Below, piece after piece: positions 1 to 14,789 of a DNA stretch of 64,000 bases. The translations under genes and the position numbers were made by a program. Position 1 is the stretch's first letter. Every line of letters starts with the position of its first letter. The DNA is taken from the NCBI GenBank assembly GCA_964449815.1, contig CAYVGC010000001.1, positions 15,361-79,360 on the forward strand, read 5' to 3'. Below the pieces are notes generated by a model. That model did not search any database. It was not told the DNA's origin and was given only the letters and a program-made list of their open reading frames with translations. This DNA is from an uncultured Bifidobacteriaceae bacterium (lineage in GTDB: Bacteria > Verrucomicrobiota > Verrucomicrobiia > Limisphaerales > UBA11358).

Positions 1-96
1 AGTTGATTTATTAAGCTGCTTCGCAACTTGAATCAAATCATCAAGCAACTCCTGATTTGAAGCGCTGCGTGAATCTGGTTTTAATTCAAATTTCAC
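1..96 (-). CDS. Partial CDS (N-terminus only, continues past the left window edge); hypothetical, possibly a homing-endonuclease-associated-repeat type N-terminus
   Basis: The reverse strand reads GTG(96..94)-KFELKPDSRSASNQELLDDLIQVAKQLNKST with no stop before position 1. The S-x-EELLDDL-x-VAK-x-L pattern resembles N-termini of HNH/homing-endonuclease-associated repeat proteins. Only about 32 codons are visible. Confidence 0.25.
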   Translation of the reverse strand, partial: MKFELKPDSRSASNQELLDDLIQVAKQLNKST

Positions 97-175
97 TTCG
101 GCATTTGCAACTTCACCTTCGCCGCCACCTGCGCCACGTCTTTGTCGCCGCGGCCGGAGAGGTTCACGATGATGA
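93..175. repeat. 83-bp direct-repeat copy of the trpB 3' end (distal copy)
   Basis: Hand alignment gives 81/83 identity to 597..679, the last ~27 codons plus stop of trpB. Mismatches are at 111 (C vs A) and 129 (C vs T). Confidence 0.9.
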
Positions 176-184
176 AATTATTTT

Positions 185-370
185 TCACGGTTCAGTAATT
201 CCCAAGTCCCGGCAGATTTTCCGGGCGAGAAACTTGTTGATCTCCGTGTGGCGCGGAACAGCGGAACGGAGATTTCTGGCCGGGTTGCCCCACCACGAAT
301 GATTGCCGCCTTCGCGGATGAGCACGCAACCCTGCGTTGCCAGATGCCGGATTAGCTCCCGCCGTTTCAC
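185..370 (-). CDS. hicA: Type II toxin HicA (mRNA interferase)
   Basis: 61 aa. The sequence REGGNHSWWGNPARNLRSAVPRHTEINKFLARKICRDLGI matches the HicA pattern (G-x-NH ... R-S-x-x-PRH-x-EI ... L-x-K-I-x-x-x-LG). The GTG start overlaps the hicB stop in a GTGA 4-nt overlap. Confidence 0.85.
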   Translation of the reverse strand: MKRRELIRHLATQGCVLIREGGNHSWWGNPARNLRSAVPRHTEINKFLARKICRDLGITEP

Positions 371-579
371 ACTAGGATGGCTTGTTCTTCGTAATCCTGT
401 TTGGCGGCAGCGAGCGCGTCCTCGCGGTTGAATTCCAATGCTTCTTTCAATGCCGAGCGAAGGTTCTTCAAAAGTTCGCCCCGGGTTTTACCCTGTGAAT
501 TGACGCCGGGAATTTCCTCCACCCAGCCAATCCACCAGCCTTCATCCTGTTTGATGATTGCATTAAACGTGCGTTTCAT
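367..579 (-). CDS. hicB: HicB-family antitoxin (UPF0150-like)
   Basis: 70 aa. The sequence FNAIIKQDEGWWIGWVEEIPGVNSQGKTRGELLKNLRSALKEALEF is a typical HicB/UPF0150 fold signature. It lies immediately upstream of hicA and is translationally coupled to it. Confidence 0.8.
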   Translation of the reverse strand: MKRTFNAIIKQDEGWWIGWVEEIPGVNSQGKTRGELLKNLRSALKEALEFNREDALAAAKQDYEEQAILV

Positions 580-596
580 GATTGAACTTTACTGAA

Positions 597-679
597 TCAC
601 TTCGGCATTTGCAAATTCACCTTCGCCGCCACTTGCGCCACGTCTTTGTCGCCGCGGCCGGAGAGGTTCACGATGATGA
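597..679. repeat. 83-bp direct-repeat copy (proximal copy, the genuine 3' end of trpB)
   Basis: Partner of 93..175. Together they bracket 176..596, which contains only hicBA. Confidence 0.9.
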
Positions 680-1811
680 GCGCGTCCTTGGGCATTTTCG
701 GCGCGCGCACCATGCACTCGGCCACGGCGTGGGCGCTTTCCAGCGCGGGGATGATGCCTTCCAGCCGCGCGAGTTTCATGAAGGCGGCGAGCGCCTGGTC
801 GTCGGTGGCGTAGGTGTATTCGGCGCGGCTGGCGTCGCGCAACCACGCGTGTTCCGGCCCGACGGCGGCGTAATCGAGTCCGGCGCTGACGCTGTGCGTG
901 GATTGGATCTGGCCGAATTCGTCCTGCAAAATGTAGCTGCGCGTGCCCTGCAACACGCCGAGCGAGCCGCCCTGAAACCGCGCCGCGTGCTGTTCGGGCC
1001 TGATGCCGAGGCCGCCCGCTTCCACGCCGACGAGCTTCACGGATTTGTCGTCGAGGAATGGATAAAACAGGCCGATGGCGTTCGAGCCGCCGCCGACGCA
1101 GGCGATGAGCATGTCCGGCAGGCGCTTTTCCTTTTCCAAAATCTGCGCGCGCGCCTCGTCGCCGATGATGCGCTGGAAATTCCGCACCATCACCGGATAC
1201 GGATGCGCGCCGTAAGCCGTGCCGAGAATGTAATGCGTGCTGCGGAGGTTCGTCACCCAGTCGCGCATGGCTTCGTTGACGGCTTCCTTCAAGGTTTTTT
1301 GGCCCGCGTGGACCGGCACGACTTCCGCGCCGAGCATCTTCATGCGATACACGTTGAGTTCCTGCCGCTGGCAATCCACCGCGCCCATGTAGATGACGCA
1401 TTTCATCCCGAACATCGCGGCGACCGTTGCGGATGCAACACCATGTTGCCCCGCGCCGGTCTCGGCGATGATGCGGGTCTTGCCCATGCGCTTGGCGAGC
1501 AGGATCTGGCCGATGGCGTTGTTGATTTTGTGCGCGCCGGTGTGGTTGAGGTCTTCGCGCTTGAGATATATCTTCGCGCCGCCGAGTTCCTTGGTCAGTC
1601 GTTCGGCGAAATAAAGCGGCGTGGGCCGGCCGACGAATTCGGTGAGATAATATGAAAGCTCGCGCTGAAATTCGGGGTCGTGTTGCGCGCGGAAGTATTC
1701 GGCCTCCAGCTCTTGCAACGGGTGCATCAGCGTTTCGGGCACATAACGTCCGCCGTAGGGACCAAAGTGGCCTTGGGCGTCGGGAAGATTCAAATTGGCA
1801 ACTGCGCTCAT
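597..1811 (-). CDS. trpB: Tryptophan synthase beta chain
   Basis: Contains [15 protein letters not shown] and the PLP-lysine motif [11 protein letters not shown], plus GGGSNAIG. The track ORF begins at a TTG at 1829. The ATG at 1811 ([17 protein letters not shown]) is the more likely start. Confidence 0.95.
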
Positions 1812-6381: not shown

Positions 6382-7650
6382 TTAGACGCCGCCAATCCAC
6401 TTGCGGTCTTCCCAAACGGCCCGGAGCGAAGTCAGGTTGCGCGAATCAAAGATATTTTTGGCAGCCGCCGCGATTTTGCCCTGTTTCAAATGGTTGAACG
6501 CGTCGCTGGCGCTGATGGCGACGAATTGCAGCACGCTCGGATCGCGGTAGCAGTCAATCATGCAGCGCGTGCAGCCGTCGCGGATGAGCTTCGAGTCGTC
6601 CCATTCCCAGACCTTGCACATCGGCTTCTCCCAGAAATGGCAGCGATACAAATCCAGCTTCCAGTCGAGGTAAAAATACTTGTGCCCGCCGAGGCAGCCG
6701 AATTTTTCCTTTTCGCCGCGCAGATGCCGCTGCATTTCGTCGAGGGATTCCCTTGGGTTCACGACGGGAAAACCGCTGTTCCGTTTCATCTGCTTGATTT
6801 TTTCGAACAGTTGAAGGAGTTCGTCCCTGGAAAAATTCACCAGGCCGCTGTCGCTGAAACTCAAATAGCTGCTCGCCAGCGATGTCAGCGGATAACTAAA
6901 CGTGCAGCTTCTGAAATCGAGCGATTCCAAAAACAGCGGCAACTTTTCAAAGTCGTCAATCAGCCGGCTGGCGGTGATGCTCGCCGTGGTTTGGATGCCG
7001 ACGGAATGGAAAAATTCGTTTGCGTGCTTGATTTTTTTGCAGACCGCCGGCAGGCCGCGGTTCGTTTCGTGCTTGGTGATGTCGTGCGCATCAATGGACA
7101 TGATGACACTGGTCAGACCGTCGCTGACGAGGCCGCGCATGTTTTCGTCATTCCACAAACCGCCGTTCGTGCAAATCATCGGATGAATCCCGCGCTCGGC
7201 AGCATAGCGCGTCATGGCACGCAAGTCGCGATGCACCATCGGTTCGCCGCCCACAAAGAGCAGATAGCCGATGTGATTTTTCAACGCGACGTCCACCACG
7301 CGCTTCGCCTCGTCGAGCGTCACGCTGCGGCGCGCTTTGGGATCAAACTTCGAGCGCGCGAAACCGCAGAAGCCGCAGTCGGCATTGCAGATGTTTGTAA
7401 TGGCAAACTGCAGATAGCCCGGTCCGCCGTGCTTCAAGACCTCTTTGAAAAGTGTGAACGTGCCTGTTTTTTTGCGAACCACCGGCACGGCGGAGTCAGT
7501 TGCCGGATTTTTGATTTCCGCCAAGTCCGGACTGGTTGTGGTTGAAATATTACTGGTCACAAACTGAGCCAGTTTGATGGCAAGAAAGGCTGCGGGCAAA
7601 CCATCTTTCACCTGCGAACCATTTCTGGCCGCGATTTTCGCTTTGCGCAA
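6382..7650 (-). CDS. Radical SAM protein with a Cys-rich (SPASM/twitch-like) C-terminus
   Basis: CxxxCxxC cluster in ITNICNADCGFCGFARS and a GGEP motif (FVGGEPMV). C-terminal cysteines lie in CLGGHKYFYLDWKLDLYRCHFW...GCTRCMIDC. There is no ATG near the 5' end, so the start is an alternative codon (TTG 7650 or an internal GTG). Confidence 0.8.
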   Translation of the reverse strand: MRKAKIAARNGSQVKDGLPAAFLAIKLAQFVTSNISTTTSPDLAEIKNPATDSAVPVVRKKTGTFTLFKEVLKHGGPGYLQFAITNICNADCGFCGFARSKFDPKARRSVTLDEAKRVVDVALKNHIGYLLFVGGEPMVHRDLRAMTRYAAERGIHPMICTNGGLWNDENMRGLVSDGLTSVIMSIDAHDITKHETNRGLPAVCKKIKHANEFFHSVGIQTTASITASRLIDDFEKLPLFLESLDFRSCTFSYPLTSLASSYLSFSDSGLVNFSRDELLQLFEKIKQMKRNSGFPVVNPRESLDEMQRHLRGEKEKFGCLGGHKYFYLDWKLDLYRCHFWEKPMCKVWEWDDSKLIRDGCTRCMIDCYRDPSVLQFVAISASDAFNHLKQGKIAAAAKNIFDSRNLTSLRAVWEDRKWIGGV

Positions 7651-7671
7651 GCACGGTGAAGAGTCTAGAGT
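7643..7671 (+). promoter_or_regulatory. Candidate sigma-70 promoter of tRNA-Gln
   Basis: TTGCGC (7643..7648), a 17-nt spacer, then TAGAGT (7666..7671). The -10 element ends 10 nt before the tRNA 5' end. Confidence 0.4.
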
Positions 7672-7681
7672 TAGGCTGGTT

Positions 7682-7755
7682 TGTCCGATGGTGTAATGGT
7701 AACACAGCGCCCTTTGGAGGCGTTATTCATGGTTCGAATCCATGTCGGACAGCCA
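7682..7755 (+). tRNA. tRNA-Gln (anticodon UUG), CCA encoded
   Basis: Hand-folded cloverleaf. Acceptor stem TGTCCGA/TCGGACA, D stem GTGT/ACAC, anticodon stem GCGCC/GGCGT with loop CTTTGGA (anticodon TTG), T arm CATGG-TTCGAAT-CCATG, discriminator G, then CCA. Total 74 nt. Confidence 0.9.
7730..7755. repeat. att core, tRNA-proximal copy (attL/attR)
   Basis: Identical to 14764..14789 over 26/26 bp. Confidence 0.85.
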
Positions 7756-7788
7756 ATTTTATCAATGAAAATGCGGGTTCTGTGGATG

Positions 7789-7808
7789 TTTGCACAGAAT
7801 TTGCACAG
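7789..7808 (+). promoter_or_regulatory. Two TTTGCACAG motifs spaced 11 bp apart (candidate integrase/Xis arm-type sites)
   Basis: TTTGCACAG at 7789..7797 and 7800..7808, between the att core and the integrase start. The same motif array occurs at the other island end. Confidence 0.5.
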
Positions 7809-7835
7809 CAACCGGCTCGACCTGCTGACCGTCGC

Positions 7836-9116
7836 GTGAGATTCCCTGTCACCATCCGACACCGCGCTAGCAGCGCGAAGATTTACGCGCCTGCCGGGAA
7901 GTTCGCCTACTACCGCGTCGCCTACGCCACGGCGGGCAAACGCCGGATGCAGACCTTCGCCGCCTATTCCGACGCCAAAGCCGCCGCCGAACGCATCGTG
8001 CGGGAACTGGCGAACGGATCACAGGCCGCCGCACTCAACGCCAGCCAGTCCCGCGACGCCCTTGCCGCCTTTGAACGGCTGGACGGCTTCTTCAAATCCA
8101 AAGGGAAGCGCGTCAGCCTCAATACCGCCGTGGCGGACTATCTGGATGCGGTTGGCAGGTTGAATGTCCCGTTGTCCGCAGCCGTGACGGGTTATTTGAA
8201 CACCGTGGCGACGGTCAAGCGCATGGACCTGGCCGCAGCCGTGAAAGAGTTTGTTGACGGGCGCGAGGCCGAGACAAAATCGGTGAACGGCAAGAGGCCG
8301 GAATTGAGCAAAAGCTATTTCCTCAATACGAAGCTCTGGCTTGGCTGGTTTGAAAAAACCTTTCCGGCAACGGCGGTTTGCGACCTGACAAGGGAGCATC
8401 TCGACTTGTTCATGGCCGGGCGCAGCCACCTTGCCGCCAAGTCCAAGAATCATCTTCGCGCCACGGTGAAGATGTTTTTGAACTGGTGCATCAAGAAAGA
8501 TTATTTGCCCGCGAACCACCGCTTGATGGATGCGTCTGGCATGAAGCGGCAAAAAGCCGACAGCGGCGAAACGGATTATTTCCGCCCGGCTGAATTGCGT
8601 GCCATGCTGGATGCGGCAGACGATACCATGCGACCGATTATCGCGCTGCAAGGTCTGGCCGGGATTCGACTGCAAGAAGCCCAGCGGCTGACGTGGCAGG
8701 ATGTTTTCAGCGTGGCGGGACACGTCGCCATTTCCGCCACGAAATCCAAGACCCGCAGCCGCCGCTTGGTTGAAATCTGCCCGGCATTGGCCGCGTGGCT
8801 TGAACCCTACCGCCAGCATGAAGGCGCGTTGTGGACACAGAGCCGCGACACCTACCACGCGGCGTTTGTCGAACTCCGCGAGTCCCAAAAAATCCCGGCG
8901 CGGAAAAATGGATTGCGCCACGGTTTTTGCACCTACCACTTCGCGCTGCATGACAATGAAAATTTGACGGCGGCACAGGCTGGAAACAGTCCTACCGTGA
9001 TTCATTCGGCATACAAAGGGCTGGCGACAAAAGCAGAGGCGAAAAAATGGTTCAAAGTTTTGCCGCCGAAGGCCGCCAAGAATGTGATTCCGCTGCCAGC
9101 GGCAAAAAATGCCTGA
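7836..9116 (+). CDS. Tyrosine recombinase / phage-type integrase
   Basis: The C-terminal catalytic region contains GIRLQEAQRLTWQDV (Arg), LRHGFCTYH (His/Arg region) and a terminal SAYKG (Tyr). The track ORF starts at 7656 and overlaps the tRNA, so an in-frame GTG at 7836 downstream of the tRNA is proposed. The start remains uncertain. Confidence 0.85.
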   Translation: MRFPVTIRHRASSAKIYAPAGKFAYYRVAYATAGKRRMQTFAAYSDAKAAAERIVRELANGSQAAALNASQSRDALAAFERLDGFFKSKGKRVSLNTAVADYLDAVGRLNVPLSAAVTGYLNTVATVKRMDLAAAVKEFVDGREAETKSVNGKRPELSKSYFLNTKLWLGWFEKTFPATAVCDLTREHLDLFMAGRSHLAAKSKNHLRATVKMFLNWCIKKDYLPANHRLMDASGMKRQKADSGETDYFRPAELRAMLDAADDTMRPIIALQGLAGIRLQEAQRLTWQDVFSVAGHVAISATKSKTRSRRLVEICPALAAWLEPYRQHEGALWTQSRDTYHAAFVELRESQKIPARKNGLRHGFCTYHFALHDNENLTAAQAGNSPTVIHSAYKGLATKAEAKKWFKVLPPKAAKNVIPLPAAKNA

Positions 9117-10188
9117 CACACCGCCGATGAACTCAAAAGCGAAAATGATTCGACGAAAGAAGCGCGGCGGTTTCGCCGAACGGCTACTTGAAAAAACTAC
9201 AGCGCCGGACTTGAAAAATGCACTTCCAACGAGCGAATGGAATTTTGATGAGACTAAAGTATCCGATACCGAGGTTGTGGCGTGCTGCCTGTGGGAATAT
9301 GCGCGTGAGTCAGCTACGCTAAAAAAATTGCGGCAGCAGTGCGAGATAGCCTGCCGCGCCGATGGCAACGCTGATTCGCTGGTTCCCGTTGTGGCGGGGA
9401 ACATCCGACACCGGCGCAATTCCGTGGAACTTTTTTTGCGGGAGATCGTGCTTCTGCCTCCGCCAGACTTATGGCAGAGCGCAGACGAGTCCAAGCCATT
9501 TTACTGGCCGCCTGATGCTGCCTTTCCACCGCGAACCAGCAGCTTCCCTGATTCCTGGCAATCAATGTCCCCGGATGAACGTGCTCGCCGGGCGGAGTCT
9601 GTAGATTTGAAAATGAAGCCTTACTTCGCGTTCAGTCGTGGCCGTTTGCGAGACGCGCAGGCCATCGTAAGGACAGTGATGGAACAGCGCAAAGTCGGAT
9701 TAAATCCCAAGATTGACCCCCTTGCAGTCAGTTTAATTGCCACGTCCATGCCGTTAGCGCCACACGCGCCGTTTGAATGGACTGATGATAATAACCGACT
9801 GCCGGGCGGGTTTGTGTATCCCGGCGGCACGGAGGTTTCGGTTGTGGAAATTGATTGGGCGCACTTCACTGACAAGGAAATTGCAGACGCGATTGCCCAA
9901 AGCCGGCCAAAGGAAATCCCTGAACCATCAGGGCGCGGGCGCGGAGATACAATCGCAGACTGGCGGGCAAAACTTGAACGGCTCGGAATCATGCGGTTGA
10001 TGCACCATCACTCGTTTGACGATTTGGGAAAAATCGTGCCGGGTGAATGGTTGAATCGGGAGAAGTATTCCACCAAGGCCGAGTGCAAAAATGAACACAA
10101 AAAAGCTCTTGATGACTTTCACGATTTGTTGCCGCTCCAGTCTGACGAGAAACCACTATCTTTCGAGCCGCTGACGGGCAATTGGTAG
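9109..10188 (+). CDS. Hypothetical protein (island orphan, no recognised domain)
   Basis: 359-aa ORF on the same strand as the integrase, overlapping the integrase stop by 8 nt. I recognise no motif. Confidence 0.6.
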   Translation: MPDTPPMNSKAKMIRRKKRGGFAERLLEKTTAPDLKNALPTSEWNFDETKVSDTEVVACCLWEYARESATLKKLRQQCEIACRADGNADSLVPVVAGNIRHRRNSVELFLREIVLLPPPDLWQSADESKPFYWPPDAAFPPRTSSFPDSWQSMSPDERARRAESVDLKMKPYFAFSRGRLRDAQAIVRTVMEQRKVGLNPKIDPLAVSLIATSMPLAPHAPFEWTDDNNRLPGGFVYPGGTEVSVVEIDWAHFTDKEIADAIAQSRPKEIPEPSGRGRGDTIADWRAKLERLGIMRLMHHHSFDDLGKIVPGEWLNREKYSTKAECKNEHKKALDDFHDLLPLQSDEKPLSFEPLTGNW

Positions 10189-10256
10189 CCACGGAACTTT
10201 TCGGAATCAAATCGCGGCGATTTGTTTCCTTGCTCCATGCGCAATGATGGTTGCGC

Positions 10257-10472
10257 ATGAGCGAAAACTTGAATCCAACGGCACCGCCGAGCGAAGCGGG
10301 GTTTATTGACGAAAAGCAACTGCTGGCGCGGCTTCCTGTGTCACGGCGAACCTGCTACGCGTGGGTTCAATCTGGAAAACTGCCCTGTTGCAAAATAAGC
10401 AGACGCAAACTGTATCACTGGCCATCGGTGGAAGCAGCGCTCCTGCGGATGCAACGAGGAGGCTGCCAATGA
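10257..10472 (+). CDS. Excisionase/AlpA-like helix-turn-helix DNA-binding protein (copy 1)
   Basis: GFIDEKQLLARLPVSRRTCYAWVQSGKLPCCKISRRKLYHWPSVEAALL matches the MerR-superfamily excisionase/AlpA HTH pattern. ATG at 10257 (the track start, TTG 10251, is also possible). Confidence 0.75.
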   Translation: MSENLNPTAPPSEAGFIDEKQLLARLPVSRRTCYAWVQSGKLPCCKISRRKLYHWPSVEAALLRMQRGGCQ

Positions 10473-10777
10473 AAACCACATCCGCCTGTTACGACGCGAT
10501 TGGCAACCTCGAATTATCTGCGTGGCTGGTGGCTCCCGGCGTGACGTGGATTCAGACCCGCTCACCACAGTTCGCCCGCAAACTTTCACAACGAAGCGAT
10601 TTCCGACTTGTGGCGCATGGTGTCGCGGGCGGTTATCTCCGCACCTTTGAATTTCAGCGCGGGCTGGCATGGGCGCGGCGTTTAATTGCGCGTTACACCA
10701 AAAACGAGACGGCGACTAATGTGCGGATAATTGCGCCAGCGCGCCCGCCCCGGCGTCGAATGGCTGAAGTCGGATGA
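10469..10777 (+). CDS. Hypothetical small protein (102 aa)
   Basis: The ATG at 10469 overlaps the Xis stop (ATGA), and its own stop overlaps the primase-like start (ATGA at 10774). It therefore looks like a coupled three-gene operon. Confidence 0.55.
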   Translation: MKTTSACYDAIGNLELSAWLVAPGVTWIQTRSPQFARKLSQRSDFRLVAHGVAGGYLRTFEFQRGLAWARRLIARYTKNETATNVRIIAPARPPRRRMAEVG

Positions 10778-11985
10778 TAGCGCCCATTGCCATCTCCGCA
10801 CCCGTTTCCTTTGGCTTGGACGTTCGCCGCCCAGGATTGCTGGAAACGCGCAGCACGGGTGACGTGTTGCTGGGCATCCAGTCCGGCGCATGGCTGGATA
10901 CAGTTGCGCTTGTCCGGTCGCTGCCGCATGACAGCGCAGAGCAAAAATCCGCCAAGCTCGCGCTCCCGTTTGCGACATGGGCGGGCGTGTTTTCGCGCCG
11001 TTCCATCTCCGGGCTTGTCTGGCACTCTGGGCAAATCGGCGTTGACCTAGACGACCTGGGCGAAGCCGCAGCCGTCGCCGTGTTGCAAACCGCCGTCGCC
11101 GACAGGTTTTGCTTGGCCGCATTTCGATCCGCCCGTGGTGAAGGTGTCCGGCTGATTTTCAGAATCCCGCCTTGCTCGCCAGAGAACCACTCCATCGCAT
11201 TTGAACAAGTCGCCGAACACGTCCGCAACACCTACGGGCGGGACGTGGACGAATCCGGCAAGGATGTTTGCCGCGCAAGTTTCGTCAGCTTTGATCGTGG
11301 TTTGTGGTTCAATCCGTCCGCTGGTGTTTTGCCGATACATCTGCCGGATGGCACACAGCGAGAGAATCCCTCTTACCGCTGTGTGCCATCGCCCTATGCT
11401 GGGGAATTGGCTTTAACCTGTTGGAATTGGTTTGGGCAGCACTTCGCCAACATCGCGCCCGTGTCAGGCGAGACGGTAAAAACGCACGGCAACATTTTGG
11501 CTTTGGGCAAGGCTATTGCTCTACATGCCGAACGGATAAAAGCGCCGGTGACTGCCCGGCTTATTGATTCGGCGTTTGATTCATGGTGGCGCGAGCACAA
11601 CCGGCAAGGTGTCCGTTTGCGTTGCTCGCCGAATGAATACCGGCGCGAGTTGCGCGACAGTATTGAAGGGGCGCGGCGCAAAAGTTGGTTCAAGTCCGCC
11701 GCTGAAAAATGGCTGCGATGGACACGGCACACAAATTTTCCGCACAGCGGATTCGAGCGAGTCTTTGGCCTTGGACAGTGCTTCTTCACGTTCGCGGATG
11801 GATTTTTCCCGCCCGGCAACGTCGAGGTCTTTTTGGGCCAGCCGATTTTCAAAATCACGGCGGGTGGATTCAATGAGCGGGGCAGCCAACGATTCCGTCA
11901 GCTTGATCTCGTTTTTGCATTTCGGACAGATGATGGTTGGTTCGGCCATAAGCATTCCTCTGGATTCAGTGTTTGCGCCCATTAA
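10774..11985 (+). CDS. Primase-like replication protein (BT4734/VirE N-terminal domain type); 3' end probably disrupted
   Basis: KLALPFATWAGVFSRRSISGLVWHSGQIGVDLDDL, FRSARGEGVRLIFRI and DESGKDVCRASFVSFDRGLWFNPSA match the BT4734-like/VirE_N pattern (KLP..t.sG.F..R...L..hSG...lD.D.l; F.S.sG.G.k; D.s.kD..R..f.S.D....N). The last ~235 nt are antisense to a DUF2130 gene fragment, so the true C-terminus is doubtful. Confidence 0.65.
   Translation: MIAPIAISAPVSFGLDVRRPGLLETRSTGDVLLGIQSGAWLDTVALVRSLPHDSAEQKSAKLALPFATWAGVFSRRSISGLVWHSGQIGVDLDDLGEAAAVAVLQTAVADRFCLAAFRSARGEGVRLIFRIPPCSPENHSIAFEQVAEHVRNTYGRDVDESGKDVCRASFVSFDRGLWFNPSAGVLPIHLPDGTQRENPSYRCVPSPYAGELALTCWNWFGQHFANIAPVSGETVKTHGNILALGKAIALHAERIKAPVTARLIDSAFDSWWREHNRQGVRLRCSPNEYRRELRDSIEGARRKSWFKSAAEKWLRWTRHTNFPHSGFERVFGLGQCFFTFADGFFPPGNVEVFLGQPIFKITAGGFNERGSQRFRQLDLVFAFRTDDGWFGHKHSSGFSVCAH
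11750..11949 (-). pseudogene. Truncated DUF2130-family gene (N-terminal ~65 codons only)
   Basis: MAEPTIICPKCKNEIKLTESLAAPLIESTRRDFENRLAQKDLDVAGREKSIREREEALSKAKDSLE resembles a DUF2130 N-terminus (Zn-ribbon-like CPxC followed by a coiled coil). Beyond about 11750 the reading frame looks like non-coding translation. Confidence 0.5.
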
Positions 11986-12136
11986 ATACAGAATCATCCA
12001 CCTTGTCGAAAGATTCTGGACGGCAGGGCGAATTTCTCGCGGTTGTCTTGCCCTTATCTACGGGCAATTTTTGGAAGACACCATCCCCTTAACCATTCGG
12101 CCAACGAAACGAGCCGCATCCGCACCAGTGTCAAAT

Positions 12137-12187
12137 TGCGGCAAAATGCGGCAACGAACTTGTCGCAATTTGCCGCCATTTGCCGCC
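12137..12187. repeat. Phased GCGGCAA motifs in an inverted arrangement (candidate operator or iteron)
   Basis: TGCGGCAA at 12137..12144 and 12147..12154 (10-bp phase), TGTCGCAA at 12161..12168, and then TTGCCGCC at 12170..12177 and 12180..12187 (reverse complement GGCGGCAA, 10-bp phase). Confidence 0.5.
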
Positions 12188-12204
12188 TTCAGCCGAAGGC
12201 TTTT
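12185..12204 (+). terminator. Candidate rho-independent terminator
   Basis: GCCTTC-AGCC-GAAGGC hairpin followed by TTTT. Confidence 0.4.
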
Positions 12205-12223
12205 ATCACACGGACGCCTTACT

Positions 12224-12246
12224 CCTTGGCTGAACCAAGGTTTTTT
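12224..12246 (+). terminator. Candidate rho-independent terminator
   Basis: CCTTGG-CTGAA-CCAAGG hairpin followed by TTTTTT. The orientation fits termination of the xis/orf/primase operon. Confidence 0.45.
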
Positions 12247-12498
12247 GTCCGCGCAACGGCCACGATCCGGCCCGCGTGTTGAACGGTGTTGACAGGTTCA
12301 ACGCAATTCAACATCGCGCATCCGCGCCAGGTATGCCTTCGGCTCCGCGTGAATCGCCCTGCGATTGTGTGGCTCGCTGCGCGTCGTCAAGGTAGTTTCG
12401 CCGTAATGCCCGGCGACTTCCACCTTGACGATGCTCGCTTCGCCGGGAGAAAGACGGGCGATTAAGGATTCACGCGGGAAGTGTCGCAGCCGTTGGCT

Positions 12499-12960
12499 GG
12501 GACATCACACGGGAAATGCGATACCGTGATGCGGACAGTTTCCGGCCAGTCCAAGTATCGGGACACGGACGGCCTATGGCCAGAACGCGGACATTCGCGG
12601 CACGGGCACGGTCGCGGACATGGACTTTTCACGGACACGGACTGTGCGCGACCACGGAGAAACAGCGGACGCGGATGCGGTCACGGACTGGATGCGGGCA
12701 CGGCGCGGTCGCGGACTGGACACGGCCCCGGATCGGACACGGACTGCCCGTGGCTACGGACAGCGGCGCGGCCATTTGGCCGGACAGATTGCGGATTCAC
12801 CGCGACTGTTTCGCGGACGCAAAAACCTCGTTTTGACGAGGAGTAAGGCTTGCCCCATCCAAAACCGGTAGGTTGCAACCATGCGGATGCCAATCCACTG
12901 CGGATCAAGTGTGGACTGATTTGCCTGCATCGCGGATGCGACTGGACAGATTACGAGGAC
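12499..12960 (+). repeat. Strand-specific degenerate short-motif array (core CGGAC, variants GGGAC/TGGAC/CGGAT)
   Basis: There are 14 exact CGGAC on the + strand, at 12532, 12566, 12588, 12615, 12632, 12638, 12666, 12684, 12712, 12734, 12740, 12757, 12781 and 12814. I saw no GTCCG on this strand in the same span. CGGACACGGACTG doublets recur at 12632 and 12734. GCGGAT variants continue to about 12940. Five overlapping stop-free frames are a compositional side effect. Confidence 0.75.
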
Positions 12961-13085
12961 ACTTTCCATTCCGGCAGCGTGTCAGCCGCTTTTGAAATCC
13001 TGCGTGCGTGACACACCCGCCCGGTCGCTGTTTAGCACAAAGTCTCCGGTGTATGAATGGTGAACTGAAAGATTTTTTGAGCGTC

Positions 13086-13334
13086 ATGCCGCCTGCCAGC
13101 CCGGATATACGGGACGTTGGTATCCGCGCTGAACAAAACCAAACATCGGCAGGCGAGGCTGGCTTCATTGACCAAAAGCAATTGCTGGCGCGGTTGCCAA
13201 TCAGCCGCCGCACGTTGTTCAACTGGCGCACGTCGGGCAAAATTCCCTGCGTGCGGCTGGGCGGGCGTCGCATCTTGTTTCACTGGCCTTCAGTCGAGGC
13301 CGCGCTGCTGCGTCACCAAAATCCGGCGGCGTGA
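13086..13334 (+). CDS. Excisionase/AlpA-like helix-turn-helix protein (copy 2, diverged paralog of 10257..10472)
   Basis: GFIDQKQLLARLPISRRTLFNWRTSGKIPCVRLGGRRILFHWPSVEAALL is roughly two-thirds identical to copy 1 over ~55 aa by eye. The start is uncertain (13008, 13053 or 13086). Confidence 0.7.
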   Translation: MPPASPDIRDVGIRAEQNQTSAGEAGFIDQKQLLARLPISRRTLFNWRTSGKIPCVRLGGRRILFHWPSVEAALLRHQNPAA

Positions 13335-13418
13335 TAATTCCCCTGATTGACACTTTGCCCGAATGACGCAATCTGTCCGCGACGTTTTTTGGATTTGAAA
13401 CCGAGATGATTCAATGGC

Positions 13419-14465
13419 ATGAGCGCGAATGAAAATAAACCCGGCGGCGAAGTGATCCTGTATCAGACCGAGGATTTACAGACTCGCGTGCAAGTGCGGC
13501 TGGACGGACAGACGGCCTGGCTGTCTTTGAACGAACTGGCGGAGTTGTTCCAGCGGGACAAATCAGTGATTTCCAAACATCTTAAAAATATATTTGAAGA
13601 AGGCGAACTGTCGACAGCGGCAACTGTTGCAAATTTTGCAACAGTTCAAAAGGAGGGCGGGCGCACGGTTGCGCGGAACATCGAGTTTTACAATCTGGAC
13701 GCCATTATCGCCGTTGGCTACCGCGTGAAATCGGCGCGTGGCACGCAGTTTCGCATCTGGGCGACGGCGCGGCTCAAGGAATATCTCGTCAAAGGCTTCA
13801 CGATGGATGACGAGCGGCTGAAAAATCCGCCGGGCAAGGGGCAGACGGATTATTTTGACGAACTGCTGGCGCGTATCCGGGACATCCGTTCCTCGGAACG
13901 GCGGTTCTATCAGAAGGTTCTGGATATTTACGCGACGAGCGTGGATTACACGCCGGATGCGGAGGTGTCGCAGAAATTCTTCGCCACGGTGCAGAACAAA
14001 ATGCACTGGGCGACGCACGGCCACACGGCGGCGGAGATAATCCATGAGCGGGCGGATGCCGGGAAACCGTTCATGGGGATGCTGACGACGCGCCCCGGCG
14101 GGCGCGTGCGGAAAGAGGACGCGGCGATTGCCAAGAATTACCTCACGGAAGACGAATTGCAGGTGCTTAACCGCATTGTGAATCTCTACATCGAATACGC
14201 GGAGTTGCAGGCGCTGGAACGCAAGCCAATGACGATGCGCGACTGGATCACGAAGCTGGACGAGTTCCTGAAAATCTCCGGGCGCAAGCTGCTGGATCAC
14301 GCCGGGACGATTTCCCACGAGCAGGCGATGATAAAGGCGGAACTGGAATTTTCAAAATTCCGCGCACTGGAAGATGCGAAACCGTCGCCGGTGGAAAAGG
14401 AATTTGAGGCGACGGTGAAAAAGTTGAAGCAATTGAAACCAGCGAAGGGAAAGAAAAAGCCCTGA
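13419..14465 (+). CDS. RhuM-family (virulence RhuM / Fic-DOC-associated) protein
   Basis: EVILYQTEDLQTRVQVRLDGQTAWLSLNELAELFQRDKSVISKHLKNIFEEGEL...NLDAIIAVGYRVKSARGTQFRIWATARLKEYLVKGF is the characteristic RhuM N-terminal signature. Confidence 0.88.
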   Translation: MSANENKPGGEVILYQTEDLQTRVQVRLDGQTAWLSLNELAELFQRDKSVISKHLKNIFEEGELSTAATVANFATVQKEGGRTVARNIEFYNLDAIIAVGYRVKSARGTQFRIWATARLKEYLVKGFTMDDERLKNPPGKGQTDYFDELLARIRDIRSSERRFYQKVLDIYATSVDYTPDAEVSQKFFATVQNKMHWATHGHTAAEIIHERADAGKPFMGMLTTRPGGRVRKEDAAIAKNYLTEDELQVLNRIVNLYIEYAELQALERKPMTMRDWITKLDEFLKISGRKLLDHAGTISHEQAMIKAELEFSKFRALEDAKPSPVEKEFEATVKKLKQLKPAKGKKKP

Positions 14466-14547
14466 CGCGCTTCACGTCGTTTTGAGTCCCGGATGCTGCC
14501 ATGAACCCTCCGGCGGTGATCGGGACGCGCCACGGCAGGCCAAAATC

Positions 14548-14632
14548 TTTGCACAAGGTTTGCACAGATTCCGGGGCGAGTTTGATTTGCACAAAGTTTG
14601 CACAGCCGGTTTCTCTGCACACGATTTGCACA
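14548..14632 (+). promoter_or_regulatory. Six (T/C)TTGCACA motifs as three 11-bp-phased pairs (candidate arm-type recombinase/RDF sites)
   Basis: Motif starts at 14548 and 14559, at 14586 and 14597, and at 14614 (TCTGCACA) and 14625. All share the orientation of the pair at 7789/7800. Confidence 0.55.
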
Positions 14633-14763
14633 CGTTTTTCTTCCCACCGCTTCCCAAAAATGAACAGATAATGCTTGCAAACATTGATTGTCTGTGTATA
14701 TTGAAGGGCAATGAATATACAACTAGAGGCAATCATGGGAAGCGGTGAGAACACCCTGAAAGT

Positions 14764-14789
14764 TGGTTCGAATCCATGTCGGACAGCCA
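14764..14789. repeat. att core, distal copy
   Basis: 26/26 identity to the tRNA-Gln 3' end. The upstream flank does not fold into a tRNA. Confidence 0.85.

Follow-up and report, generated by a model that had tools for sequence, protein, structure and literature searches.

A hicBA toxin–antitoxin cassette enclosed by two copies of the trpB 3′ end at a hypervariable locus

The 64,000-nt stretch of contig CAYVGC010000001.1 analyzed here (the window; position 1 is its first letter) carries near its left edge a hicB–hicA toxin–antitoxin cassette enclosed between two copies of the 3′ end of trpB, the gene for tryptophan synthase beta. The copies, at 93–175 and 597–679, are 83 nt long, agree at 81 of 83 positions (98%) and differ at 111/615 and 129/633, once synonymously (CAA/CAG) and once by an Asn/Lys exchange (AAT/AAG). 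Verified by a repeat search and by BLAST of the window against itself, they form the sole repeat longer than 41 nt in the 64 kb and are present exactly twice (self-BLAST, E ~1e-34 to 1e-39). The insert between them is 421 bp long and holds hicB and hicA only. The proximal copy ends exactly at the trpB stop codon, and homology to trpB within the window ends at 175. The original prediction had described 81/83 identical repeats around a coupled hicB–hicA pair and nothing else, which is confirmed in every detail, and it was equally right that no recombinase lies between the copies and that the end of trpB has been reconstituted, in that a complete 3′ end is kept and a second end lies beyond the hicBA-only insert. 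The distal copy could have belonged to a decayed second paralog of trpB, the outcome named there as a refutation; homology stops at 175 instead, and apart from a 32%-identical PALP paralog neither the window nor L001 has anything further that resembles trpB. L001 is a 37.9-kb peat-metagenome contig obtained by an exact look-up of HicB (L-numbers denote retrieved contigs and P-numbers proteins). No third copy of the repeat is present in the window or in L001.

All genes in the chain from trpB to the left edge of the window lie on the minus strand (table 1). The trpB product matches TIGR00263 (633 bits; cut-off 392) and PF00291 and is 83–91% identical in amino acid sequence to TrpB of Verrucomicrobiota metagenome-assembled genomes (MAGs). 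Copy B of the repeat, which is the functional end of trpB, has AAT (Asn) and CAA at the two variable codons, where AAG (Lys) and CAG stand in copy A and in related trpB ends. Neither a terminator nor a promoter is predicted in the 17-nt spacer between trpB and hicB, and terminator and promoter scans of the whole stretch from trpB to the gene beyond copy A returned no terminator and one promoter-like site at chance level; the chain of trpB, hicBA, trpB remnant and downstream gene is probably read from the trpB transcript. An Rfam scan of positions 1–2500 gave no match, and both strands of both repeat copies fold no better than shuffled sequence (z-scores +0.9 to +2.6). The hicA stop directly precedes the junction at 176–184. 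A 31-codon open reading frame (ORF) made largely of the remnant starts with a GTG that overlaps the hicA stop (GTGA, 185–188), ends with a stop that overlaps the GTG of the next gene, and is annotated as a gene in several metagenome contigs. The final bases of the remnant (AAG TGA) supply that next GTG (96..94), and the further gene that had been predicted to start inside the distal copy, at GTG 96, proves to be a 309-aa HNH gene. The window structure is not an assembly artifact because the same structure is present in contigs assembled from several samples (ENA, JGI).

Table 1. Features at the trpB–hicBA locus (window coordinates)
Feature	Position	Strand	Basis or remark
Complete trpB (tryptophan synthase beta)	597..1811	-	404 aa from ATG; 410 aa from upstream TTG at 1829
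Repeat copy B: functional last 26 codons and stop of trpB	597..679	-	Repeat search, self-BLAST
Spacer from trpB stop to hicB ATG, 17 nt	580..596	-	Sequence
hicB-like antitoxin gene, 70 aa	367..579	-	PF21748, below cut-off; names of close relatives
hicA toxin gene, 61 aa, GTG start	185..370	-	PF07927
Junction of hicA end and trpB-derived remnant: AAAAATAAT, then T at 175	176..184	-	Sequence
Repeat copy A: displaced or duplicated trpB 3′ end (remnant)	93..175	-	81/83 identical to copy B
31-codon ORF: MKNNF plus the C-terminal 26 residues of TrpB	93..188	-	ORF translation
First 32 codons of the 309-aa HNH_repeat and HNH gene	1..96	-	Window 1–92 matches L001 10488–10579
Zone of clustered strain polymorphisms within trpB	684..1504	-	Comparison with same-species contigs

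The hicA product matches PF07927 with 41.3 bits (cut-off 27), its residues 4–58 aligning with profile positions 2–58 of 58, and the histidine in its GGNHSWW stretch sits at the position that we take to be catalytic in HicA. Toxins of the HicA family are of the ribonuclease (RNase) type and are not DNA endonucleases. The HicB-like protein matches PF21748 weakly (23.1 bits, under the cut-off of 27.3); NCBI and JGI name proteins 93–100% identical to it HicB-family antitoxin or HicB nuclease, and its 70 residues probably adopt an RNase H-like/UPF0150 fold and lack the usual C-terminal DNA-binding domain. The two genes are adjacent and co-oriented, with the hicB stop and the hicA start overlapping as GTGA at 367–370. 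We predict that hicBA is a HicAB type II toxin–antitoxin pair, toxicity and neutralization being part of that prediction. PADLOC made no defense-system call for hicBA or for hicBA together with the HNH gene. The protein collection holds about 2000 homologs of HicB, the best 120 of which are 87–100% identical; two of them, P0132 and P0208, were looked up. Exact-protein look-ups of HicA and of TrpB gave no matches.

The module trpB–hicBA–trpB′, where trpB′ denotes the second 3′ end, is present with the same anatomy in two further lineages of soil Verrucomicrobiota. The proteins P0132 (96% identical to the window's HicB) and P0208 (90%) lead to contigs L131–L138 and L139–L148, respectively, each set drawn from several samples, and hicB lies behind trpB, directly or after a Uma2 cassette, in every one of these contigs that reaches far enough upstream (L137 begins at hicB). 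L131 and L139 both have an intact hicA, encoding a conserved HicA, that overlaps hicB by GTGA and whose stop overlaps the start of a trpB-derived ORF (ATGA) of 31 codons in L131 and 38 codons in L139. Nucleotide identity to the window is 88% in trpB and 84% in hicBA for L131, and 81.5% and 82%, respectively, for L139, figures that suit either an old module co-inherited with trpB or one moving together with the trpB end. The gene beyond the remnant differs among the three lineages, being DUF4238 in L131, a gene for a TPR protein in L139 and the HNH gene in the window, and the upstream neighbors differ too. The junction between hicA and the remnant also varies in length and sequence by lineage: L131 has ATGAAGCAACCGC there, and in L139 the trpB-derived stretch is 34 nt longer. 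L131 (2252–3487) has three trpB 3′ copies in tandem, in the order trpB, Uma2 (PF05685, a putative restriction endonuclease), remnant, hicBA, remnant; the identity of the Uma2 remnant to the resident trpB end over the last 59 nt indicates that the Uma2 insertion is recent. We considered the remnant ORF as a conserved translational-coupling device and rejected this idea: the overlap with the hicA stop is conserved, yet it is explained by selection on the hicA stop, and coupling of the remnant to the next gene is seen in the window lineage only.

Further contigs show related arrangements around trpB. In L022 (7238–7793) a frameshifted Uma2-like gene lies right behind trpB, with no remnant detected. 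L139 and L145 encode an identical HicB (P0208), in each case behind trpB; the two trpB genes share 92.9% nucleotide identity. Upstream, L139 has pntB, whereas L145 has trpF, a LOG-like gene and a 135-aa ORF; these genes occur in L001 on the far side of the variable region described below, in inverted orientation. Rearrangement breakpoints appear to cluster at the trpB locus.

We surveyed 82 trpB loci, 80 of them from a scan of GTDB species, for a duplicated 3′ end and found one only in L010 and in L001, which belongs to the species of the window; the duplication is clade-limited. L010 (JBAOIL010000025.1, a Verrucomicrobiota MAG, 6791–8796) is the closest GTDB relative, with a TrpB 91% identical, and is without hicBA. 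Behind its trpB come a 314-aa ORF that has no Pfam, NCBIfam or PADLOC match and then 423 nt that repeat the end of trpB (residues 264–404) and are 98% identical to it over the first 300 nt. The hicBA module is absent from 14 GTDB species with TrpB 82–91% identical and from the same-species allele L113. Expressed as distances upstream of the gene's stop (negative coordinates, here and below for trpB unless stated), the remnants start at about -77/-86, -83, -117 and -423. The resident trpB ends 15 nt before its own remnant copy in L010 and L139, and the same short trpB end, with no insert, is found in the GTDB relatives L015 and L016. The original prediction had likened the locus to site-specific elements that target gene 3′ ends; remnant lengths of ~77–86, 83, 117 and 423 nt together with unequal ends do not fit a single crossover site, and the likeness fails on this point.

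The history of the individual copies is mixed. Copy A of the window shares both variable bases with the trpB end of L113 and with the remnant of L010, and copy B is the odd one, by 2 single-nucleotide polymorphisms (SNPs) only. Over 68 nt, the copies of one genome group together in the window, where they have 2 differences, and in L131, where they have 3, but not in L139 (12 differences). Both concerted evolution and transfer appear to shape the copies, and either copy may have come with the cassette.

To the left of the window, L001 provides the continuation; over the first 10.6 kb of the window the two sequences differ by some two dozen substitutions, mostly in trpB. The gene that runs off the window is complete in L001 (10484–11413) and encodes 309 aa with matches to PF18780, PF01844 and PF14279: three N-terminal HNH_repeat units (PF18780) are followed by an HNH nuclease domain with CxxC pairs and a DH...N motif. 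We regard this gene as homing-endonuclease-like, with an intact nuclease domain and predicted activity. PADLOC gave generic nuclease matches only for this protein, the phage database matched it over the catalytic ~80 C-terminal residues only, and a literature phrase search for 'homing endonuclease associated repeat' found no paper. GC content is 37% in window 1–100 and ~43–45% across the HNH gene in L001, as against 60–70% in trpB. Beyond the HNH gene lie a decayed 3′ remnant of a TIR gene, a response regulator gene and housekeeping genes. The check proposed in the original prediction, a search left of the window for an integrase or a third repeat copy, was negative over 10 kb of L001; of the larger or tandem island suspected there, the tandem array is borne out in the relative L131, with its three copies, and the leftward extension is not.

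Contigs of the same species with other alleles, obtained via a 121-aa protein encoded upstream of trpB, reveal that the region behind trpB is hypervariable within the species and that the trpB end is its border. In L113 (6652–7770) trpB, here with a TAA stop, is followed by a 372-aa pentapeptide-repeat/TIR_2 protein that has defense-type matches in PADLOC, and the HNH gene is absent; in L114 a trpB with a diverged 3′ two-thirds precedes other ORFs. The 150 nt directly after the HNH stop in L001 (11416–11564) are 83% identical to the 3′ end of the L113-type TIR gene, and because this TIR 3′ remnant survives right after the HNH stop, the HNH gene appears to have replaced most of a TIR gene. An allele joining trpB directly to the HNH gene (92 joined to 680) was not found among the retrieved contigs, and a search with HNH homologs returned the same context only. 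When seven same-species contigs are compared with the window, all differences fall at -908 to -1 from the trpB stop, and neither the initial 300 nt of trpB nor the 1.5 kb upstream of the gene contains any. Strain SNPs are restricted to the 3′ two-thirds of trpB, and five of them, at 684–695, lie 5–16 nt from the inner boundary of the repeat. This pattern bears the signature of recombination breakpoints inside a core gene that flanks a variable region. In the comparison with L001 and L112–L118 (684–1449), the window strain alone has 12 third-codon-position differences, at -852 to -594, where the other same-species contigs all agree in the alternative state; this patch looks like an imported conversion tract.

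Homologs of the HNH gene occur at other loci, where they follow conserved same-strand genes: metH, an mqnE/mqnC-like radical-SAM gene and a uvrD-like gene within 2–24 nt of the stop, purN at 215 nt downstream, and proS with a toxin–antitoxin pair intervening. At metH the anatomy of trpB is met again. L097 and L098 have the HNH gene directly behind metH, and L100 (3785–5657) and L101 (1176–3047) have metH, a 63-aa ORF, DUF4160, DUF2442, a 219-nt copy of the metH 3′ end and the HNH gene, whose ATG overlaps the TGA of the metH remnant. The metH duplication ends exactly at the stop codon. Its copies are 85% identical, with 33 differences and 7 of 73 residues changed; because most differences are synonymous, the copies, which are equidistant from relatives, appear to have evolved apart in different lineages while each was a working gene end, and to have been united by transfer. 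Over 6.9 kb, only six positions distinguish L100 from L101. Each of them falls within the resident copy or shortly behind it, and at the three inside the copy L101 has the remnant-type base, which we read as direct evidence of gene conversion between the metH copies.

Other HNH homologs carry traces of earlier locations. L090, L093, L094 and L096 contain HNH genes 62–80% identical to that of the window in unrelated contexts, each with a 9–16-codon upstream ORF derived from the 3′ end of an mqnE/mqnC-like gene (..K[MV]LE[DE]..A*), and in L099 and L092 HNH homologs directly follow the mqnE/mqnC-like gene. Because ectopic copies keep this mqnE-like 3′ piece upstream, HNH genes seem to travel with a piece of a former host gene. 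In L110 (567–1071) an AF2212-like/PemK pair lies between proS and the HNH gene with no duplicated gene end, and a ParE-like gene follows downstream; in L128 (1500–2166), from the contexts of P0014, a Phd/PIN pair on the opposite strand comes after an HNH gene that follows a UvrD-like helicase gene.

The window also contains an island of a familiar kind, separate from the hicBA locus. A tRNA-Gln(ttg) gene (7682–7755) is followed by a tyrosine-integrase-like gene (~7837–9116; PF00589, 28 bits, cut-off 27.1), a 359-aa ORF and a gene for a protein with a BT4734-like primase N-terminal domain (10774–11985), and the last 26 nt of the tRNA gene (7730–7755) are exactly repeated at 14764–14789, the would-be attR. 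We interpret 7682–14789 as a classic tRNA-integrated integrase island; a 41-nt direct repeat, 85% identical, lies inside it (10291–10331 and 13153–13193). In contrast to this island, which has an integrase beside its att site, the hicBA locus has none.

Based on the different far-side neighbors, the stacking in L131, the variable boundaries, the mosaic of SNPs confined to trpB and the lack of a recombinase, we favor an integrase-free, recombination-based stacking of cassettes that is anchored in the trpB 3′ end and maintained by toxin–antitoxin addiction, an account to which we give about an even chance. The 83-bp direct repeat would be the scar of a recombinational insertion of the promoter-less hicB–hicA cassette behind trpB, in which trpB kept or received a full 3′ end (copy B) and a second end (copy A) was left behind hicA. 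The founding event would have been two-sided, anchored on the left by homology within trpB and closed on the right by an illegitimate join, either as homology-facilitated illegitimate recombination or as break repair copied from another allele. Two alternative cassettes from downstream of trpB would thereby have been put in tandem, and the part of trpB common to both alleles would have been duplicated. From then on the remnant could act as a portable right-hand homology arm: one crossover in trpB and another between the remnant and the trpB end of a recipient would allow RecA to insert the block trpB 3′ end–hicBA–trpB′ in any downstream context, and more cassettes could be stacked likewise. 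The trpB end would be both the border and the landing pad of a hypervariable accessory-gene hotspot, with the copies within a genome partly homogenized by gene conversion. We posit that the cassette survives between the repeats since deletion of a toxin–antitoxin pair is counter-selected, and that the HNH gene beyond the remnant was a later, separate arrival. The original prediction held that the pair could be lost by simple recombination between the repeats; no such loss is seen in the retrieved contigs, and the module is kept across lineages with 81–88% nucleotide identity in trpB, a stability between direct repeats that addiction plausibly explains.

Several observations weigh against this account. 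In the window, in L131 and at metH, the duplication stops on its proximal side precisely at the stop codon, which random joins need not give, and the cassette is extremely compact, with the hicA stop supplied by the junction; the exact edge and the compactness either need selection or fit a more specific mechanism. The hicBA, Uma2 and 314-aa ORF (ORF314) cassettes all sit at trpB while 78 other trpB loci of GTDB species show no duplication, a clustering that hints at a site preference. The parental alleles, trpB–hicBA without a remnant and trpB–HNH without hicBA, are not among the retrieved contigs. The L139 remnant has 3–4 differences per 68 nt from the window clade and 12 per 68 from its own trpB, with hicBA at 82% identity; the three hicBA lineages may reflect either vertical descent or transfer. 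Finally, the account presupposes that homology-facilitated illegitimate recombination can yield duplications rather than deletions.

A bolder form of the same idea, which strikes us as unlikely, takes the repeat to be a working part of a recombinase-free mobile system. Blocks of gene end, cargo and gene end, the cargo being small selfish genes such as toxin–antitoxin pairs and nucleases, would be inserted, stacked and exchanged by RecA, with deletion blocked by addiction; the two arms would share one target, a highly conserved part of an essential gene, and any related genome could serve as host. In a stronger version still, an unrecognized enzyme would target codons in the repeat, and the ~2000 near-identical HicB variants of metagenomes would mark a widespread trpB-linked family of Verrucomicrobiota cassettes.

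A nuclease could instead have driven the insertion, in the manner of fungal mitochondrial mobile ORFs (mORFs), a possibility that we consider unlikely. A DNA endonuclease would make its cut close to the repeat's inner edge in a naive trpB or metH gene, and repair would copy in a 3′ end with its cargo, leaving the native end downstream; the adjacent HNH protein would act as driver, or Uma2 in the case of the L131 cassette, and hicBA would be hitch-hiking cargo. The HNH_repeat/HNH gene does abut the remnant both at trpB here and at metH, its relatives follow conserved same-strand genes and keep 3′ pieces of former host genes at ectopic sites, and the strain SNPs 5–16 nt from the repeat edge are what a co-conversion tract would give. 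However, hicBA and a remnant occur in L131 and L139 without any HNH gene, for which reason we gave less weight to the idea that the HNH gene caused the duplication around hicBA; L010 has a duplication without an HNH gene or a recognizable nuclease (its 314-aa ORF has no Pfam match); the window's HNH gene lies outside the repeats, with only hicB and hicA between the copies; HicA is by family of the RNase type and not a DNA endonuclease; and HNH proteins 62–80% identical stand behind unrelated genes, which leaves no evident specificity for trpB. The mORFs of Allomyces and Glomus carry a foreign C-terminus of atp6, atp9, cox2 or nad3, and the evidence on them points to transfer between lineages (PMC3630166). 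They share with our locus the order of gene core, inserted 3′ end, cargo ORF and native 3′ end as well as copies that diverge mostly synonymously (PMC3630166), and the trpB–copy–Uma2–copy part of L131 has the mORF layout. The mORF cargo is the driving endonuclease, whereas here it is a toxin–antitoxin pair (Uma2 in L131) on a bacterial chromosome, with the HNH gene outside the repeats.

The other known route to a duplicated gene end is a site-specific integrase, as in e14, a 15-kb element that is taken to encode its own integrase. A decayed element of the e14/phage 21 or cis-mobilizable element (CIME) type would have brought its own trpB 3′ end and then lost all but hicBA, copy B being attL and copy A attR, with tandem accretion later; we think this quite unlikely. 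Site-specifically integrated, e14 supplies the icd 3′ end and leaves a 163-bp pseudo-icd at its far end, and its copies can differ synonymously (PMC6379469). As with e14 and phage 21 at icd, the target here is intact via a second 3′ end and the other copy is a pseudo-fragment beyond the insert; the 83-nt repeat ends exactly at the stop and includes the 3′ end of the target gene as attL and attR would, copy A has the states of related trpB genes and copy B is odd, as if element-borne, and the metH copies likewise differ mostly synonymously. Unlike e14, the insert is 421 bp, holds hicBA only, has no integrase inside it or in 10 kb to the left, and has variable remnant boundaries. CIMEs, known from the ICESt1/ICESt3 family of ICEs (integrative and conjugative elements) as well as from streptococcal integrative and mobilizable elements (IMEs), are integrase-less, are bounded by attL and attR and form tandem accretions at a gene-end site (PMC5704250), which is what L131, where three copies separate two cassettes, resembles. 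They are, however, recognizable ICE or IME relics that need a related integrase in cis or in trans, and no such relative was found here; moreover, the repeats at our loci are 74–423 nt of coding sequence as opposed to the short core of CIMEs. Much else speaks against an integrase. The four cassettes (hicBA, Uma2, ORF314 and DUF4160/DUF2442) are all without one, as are 10 kb of L001; no tyrosine or serine recombinase is encoded in the cassettes of L010, L100, L131 and L139, and the region's only integrase is that of the tRNA-Gln island. The crossover is not fixed, with remnants starting from -77 to -423 and the resident end of L010 falling 15 nt short of the remnant; the hicA stop is made by the junction, which leaves no non-coding att arm; and both copies carry the signature of the host lineage in the window and in L131 rather than one of them being a shared element-type copy. 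Four separate decays to 0.4–1.2 kb without a recombinase relic would be needed, and among the contigs there is no empty site or excision product, the alternative alleles L113 and L114 differing in content. Least credible of all, to the point of being very improbable, is an ordinary local event, be it a small dispersed duplication, a decayed trpB paralog or an assembly artifact: short duplications do arise spontaneously and the window copies are near-identical, but the structure was assembled independently in contigs of several samples, homology ends after 83 nt with only the distant PALP paralog elsewhere, and the architecture is found again with other cassettes and at metH.

Integrase-free stacking also has to be set beside systems that share single features with it. 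Integron cassettes, including the toxin–antitoxin cassettes of superintegrons, are likewise small, promoter-less, packed, separated by repeats and expressed from upstream; unlike integrons, our locus has no intI and no attI, and its repeat is the 3′ end of a coding gene without an attC-like hairpin, for which reasons an integron origin was rejected. Integrase-free hotspots, which are exchanged by homologous recombination in flanking core genes and to which homology-facilitated illegitimate recombination can contribute, come closer, with TIR, HNH and toxin–antitoxin genes between conserved genes, a SNP mosaic in the flanking core gene and coexisting alleles, but descriptions of them do not usually include a duplication of the flanking gene's 3′ end between successive cassettes. 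The neighboring HNH gene resembles the free-standing HNH homing endonucleases of phages (T4 Seg/Mob-like and I-HmuI-type) in its HNH domain with two CxxC pairs, its patchy presence among close relatives, its position between conserved genes and its use of host expression signals, and differs from them in its three N-terminal HNH_repeat units, which form a distinct, mostly cellular family. A duplicated gene 3′ end around an insert is already known from integrase elements and from mitochondrial mORFs; new here are the bacterial chromosome, the absence of a recombinase, the toxin–antitoxin cargo and the repeated occurrence at trpB.

How toxin–antitoxin pairs and other small selfish or defense genes spread without a transposase or integrase is poorly understood. 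The loci described here offer a repeatable anatomy, in which a cassette behind an essential gene is followed in turn by a copy of the last 80–400 bases of that gene, with three cassettes at trpB and one at metH. In practical terms, finding a gene end duplicated in att-like fashion is not in itself evidence of an integrase island. If the repeat is merely an old scar, the locus is still a clear example of hotspot evolution and involves no new principle; if it is a portable homology arm, it would explain both the accretion of cassettes at hotspots without an integrase and the stability of a toxin–antitoxin pair between direct repeats.

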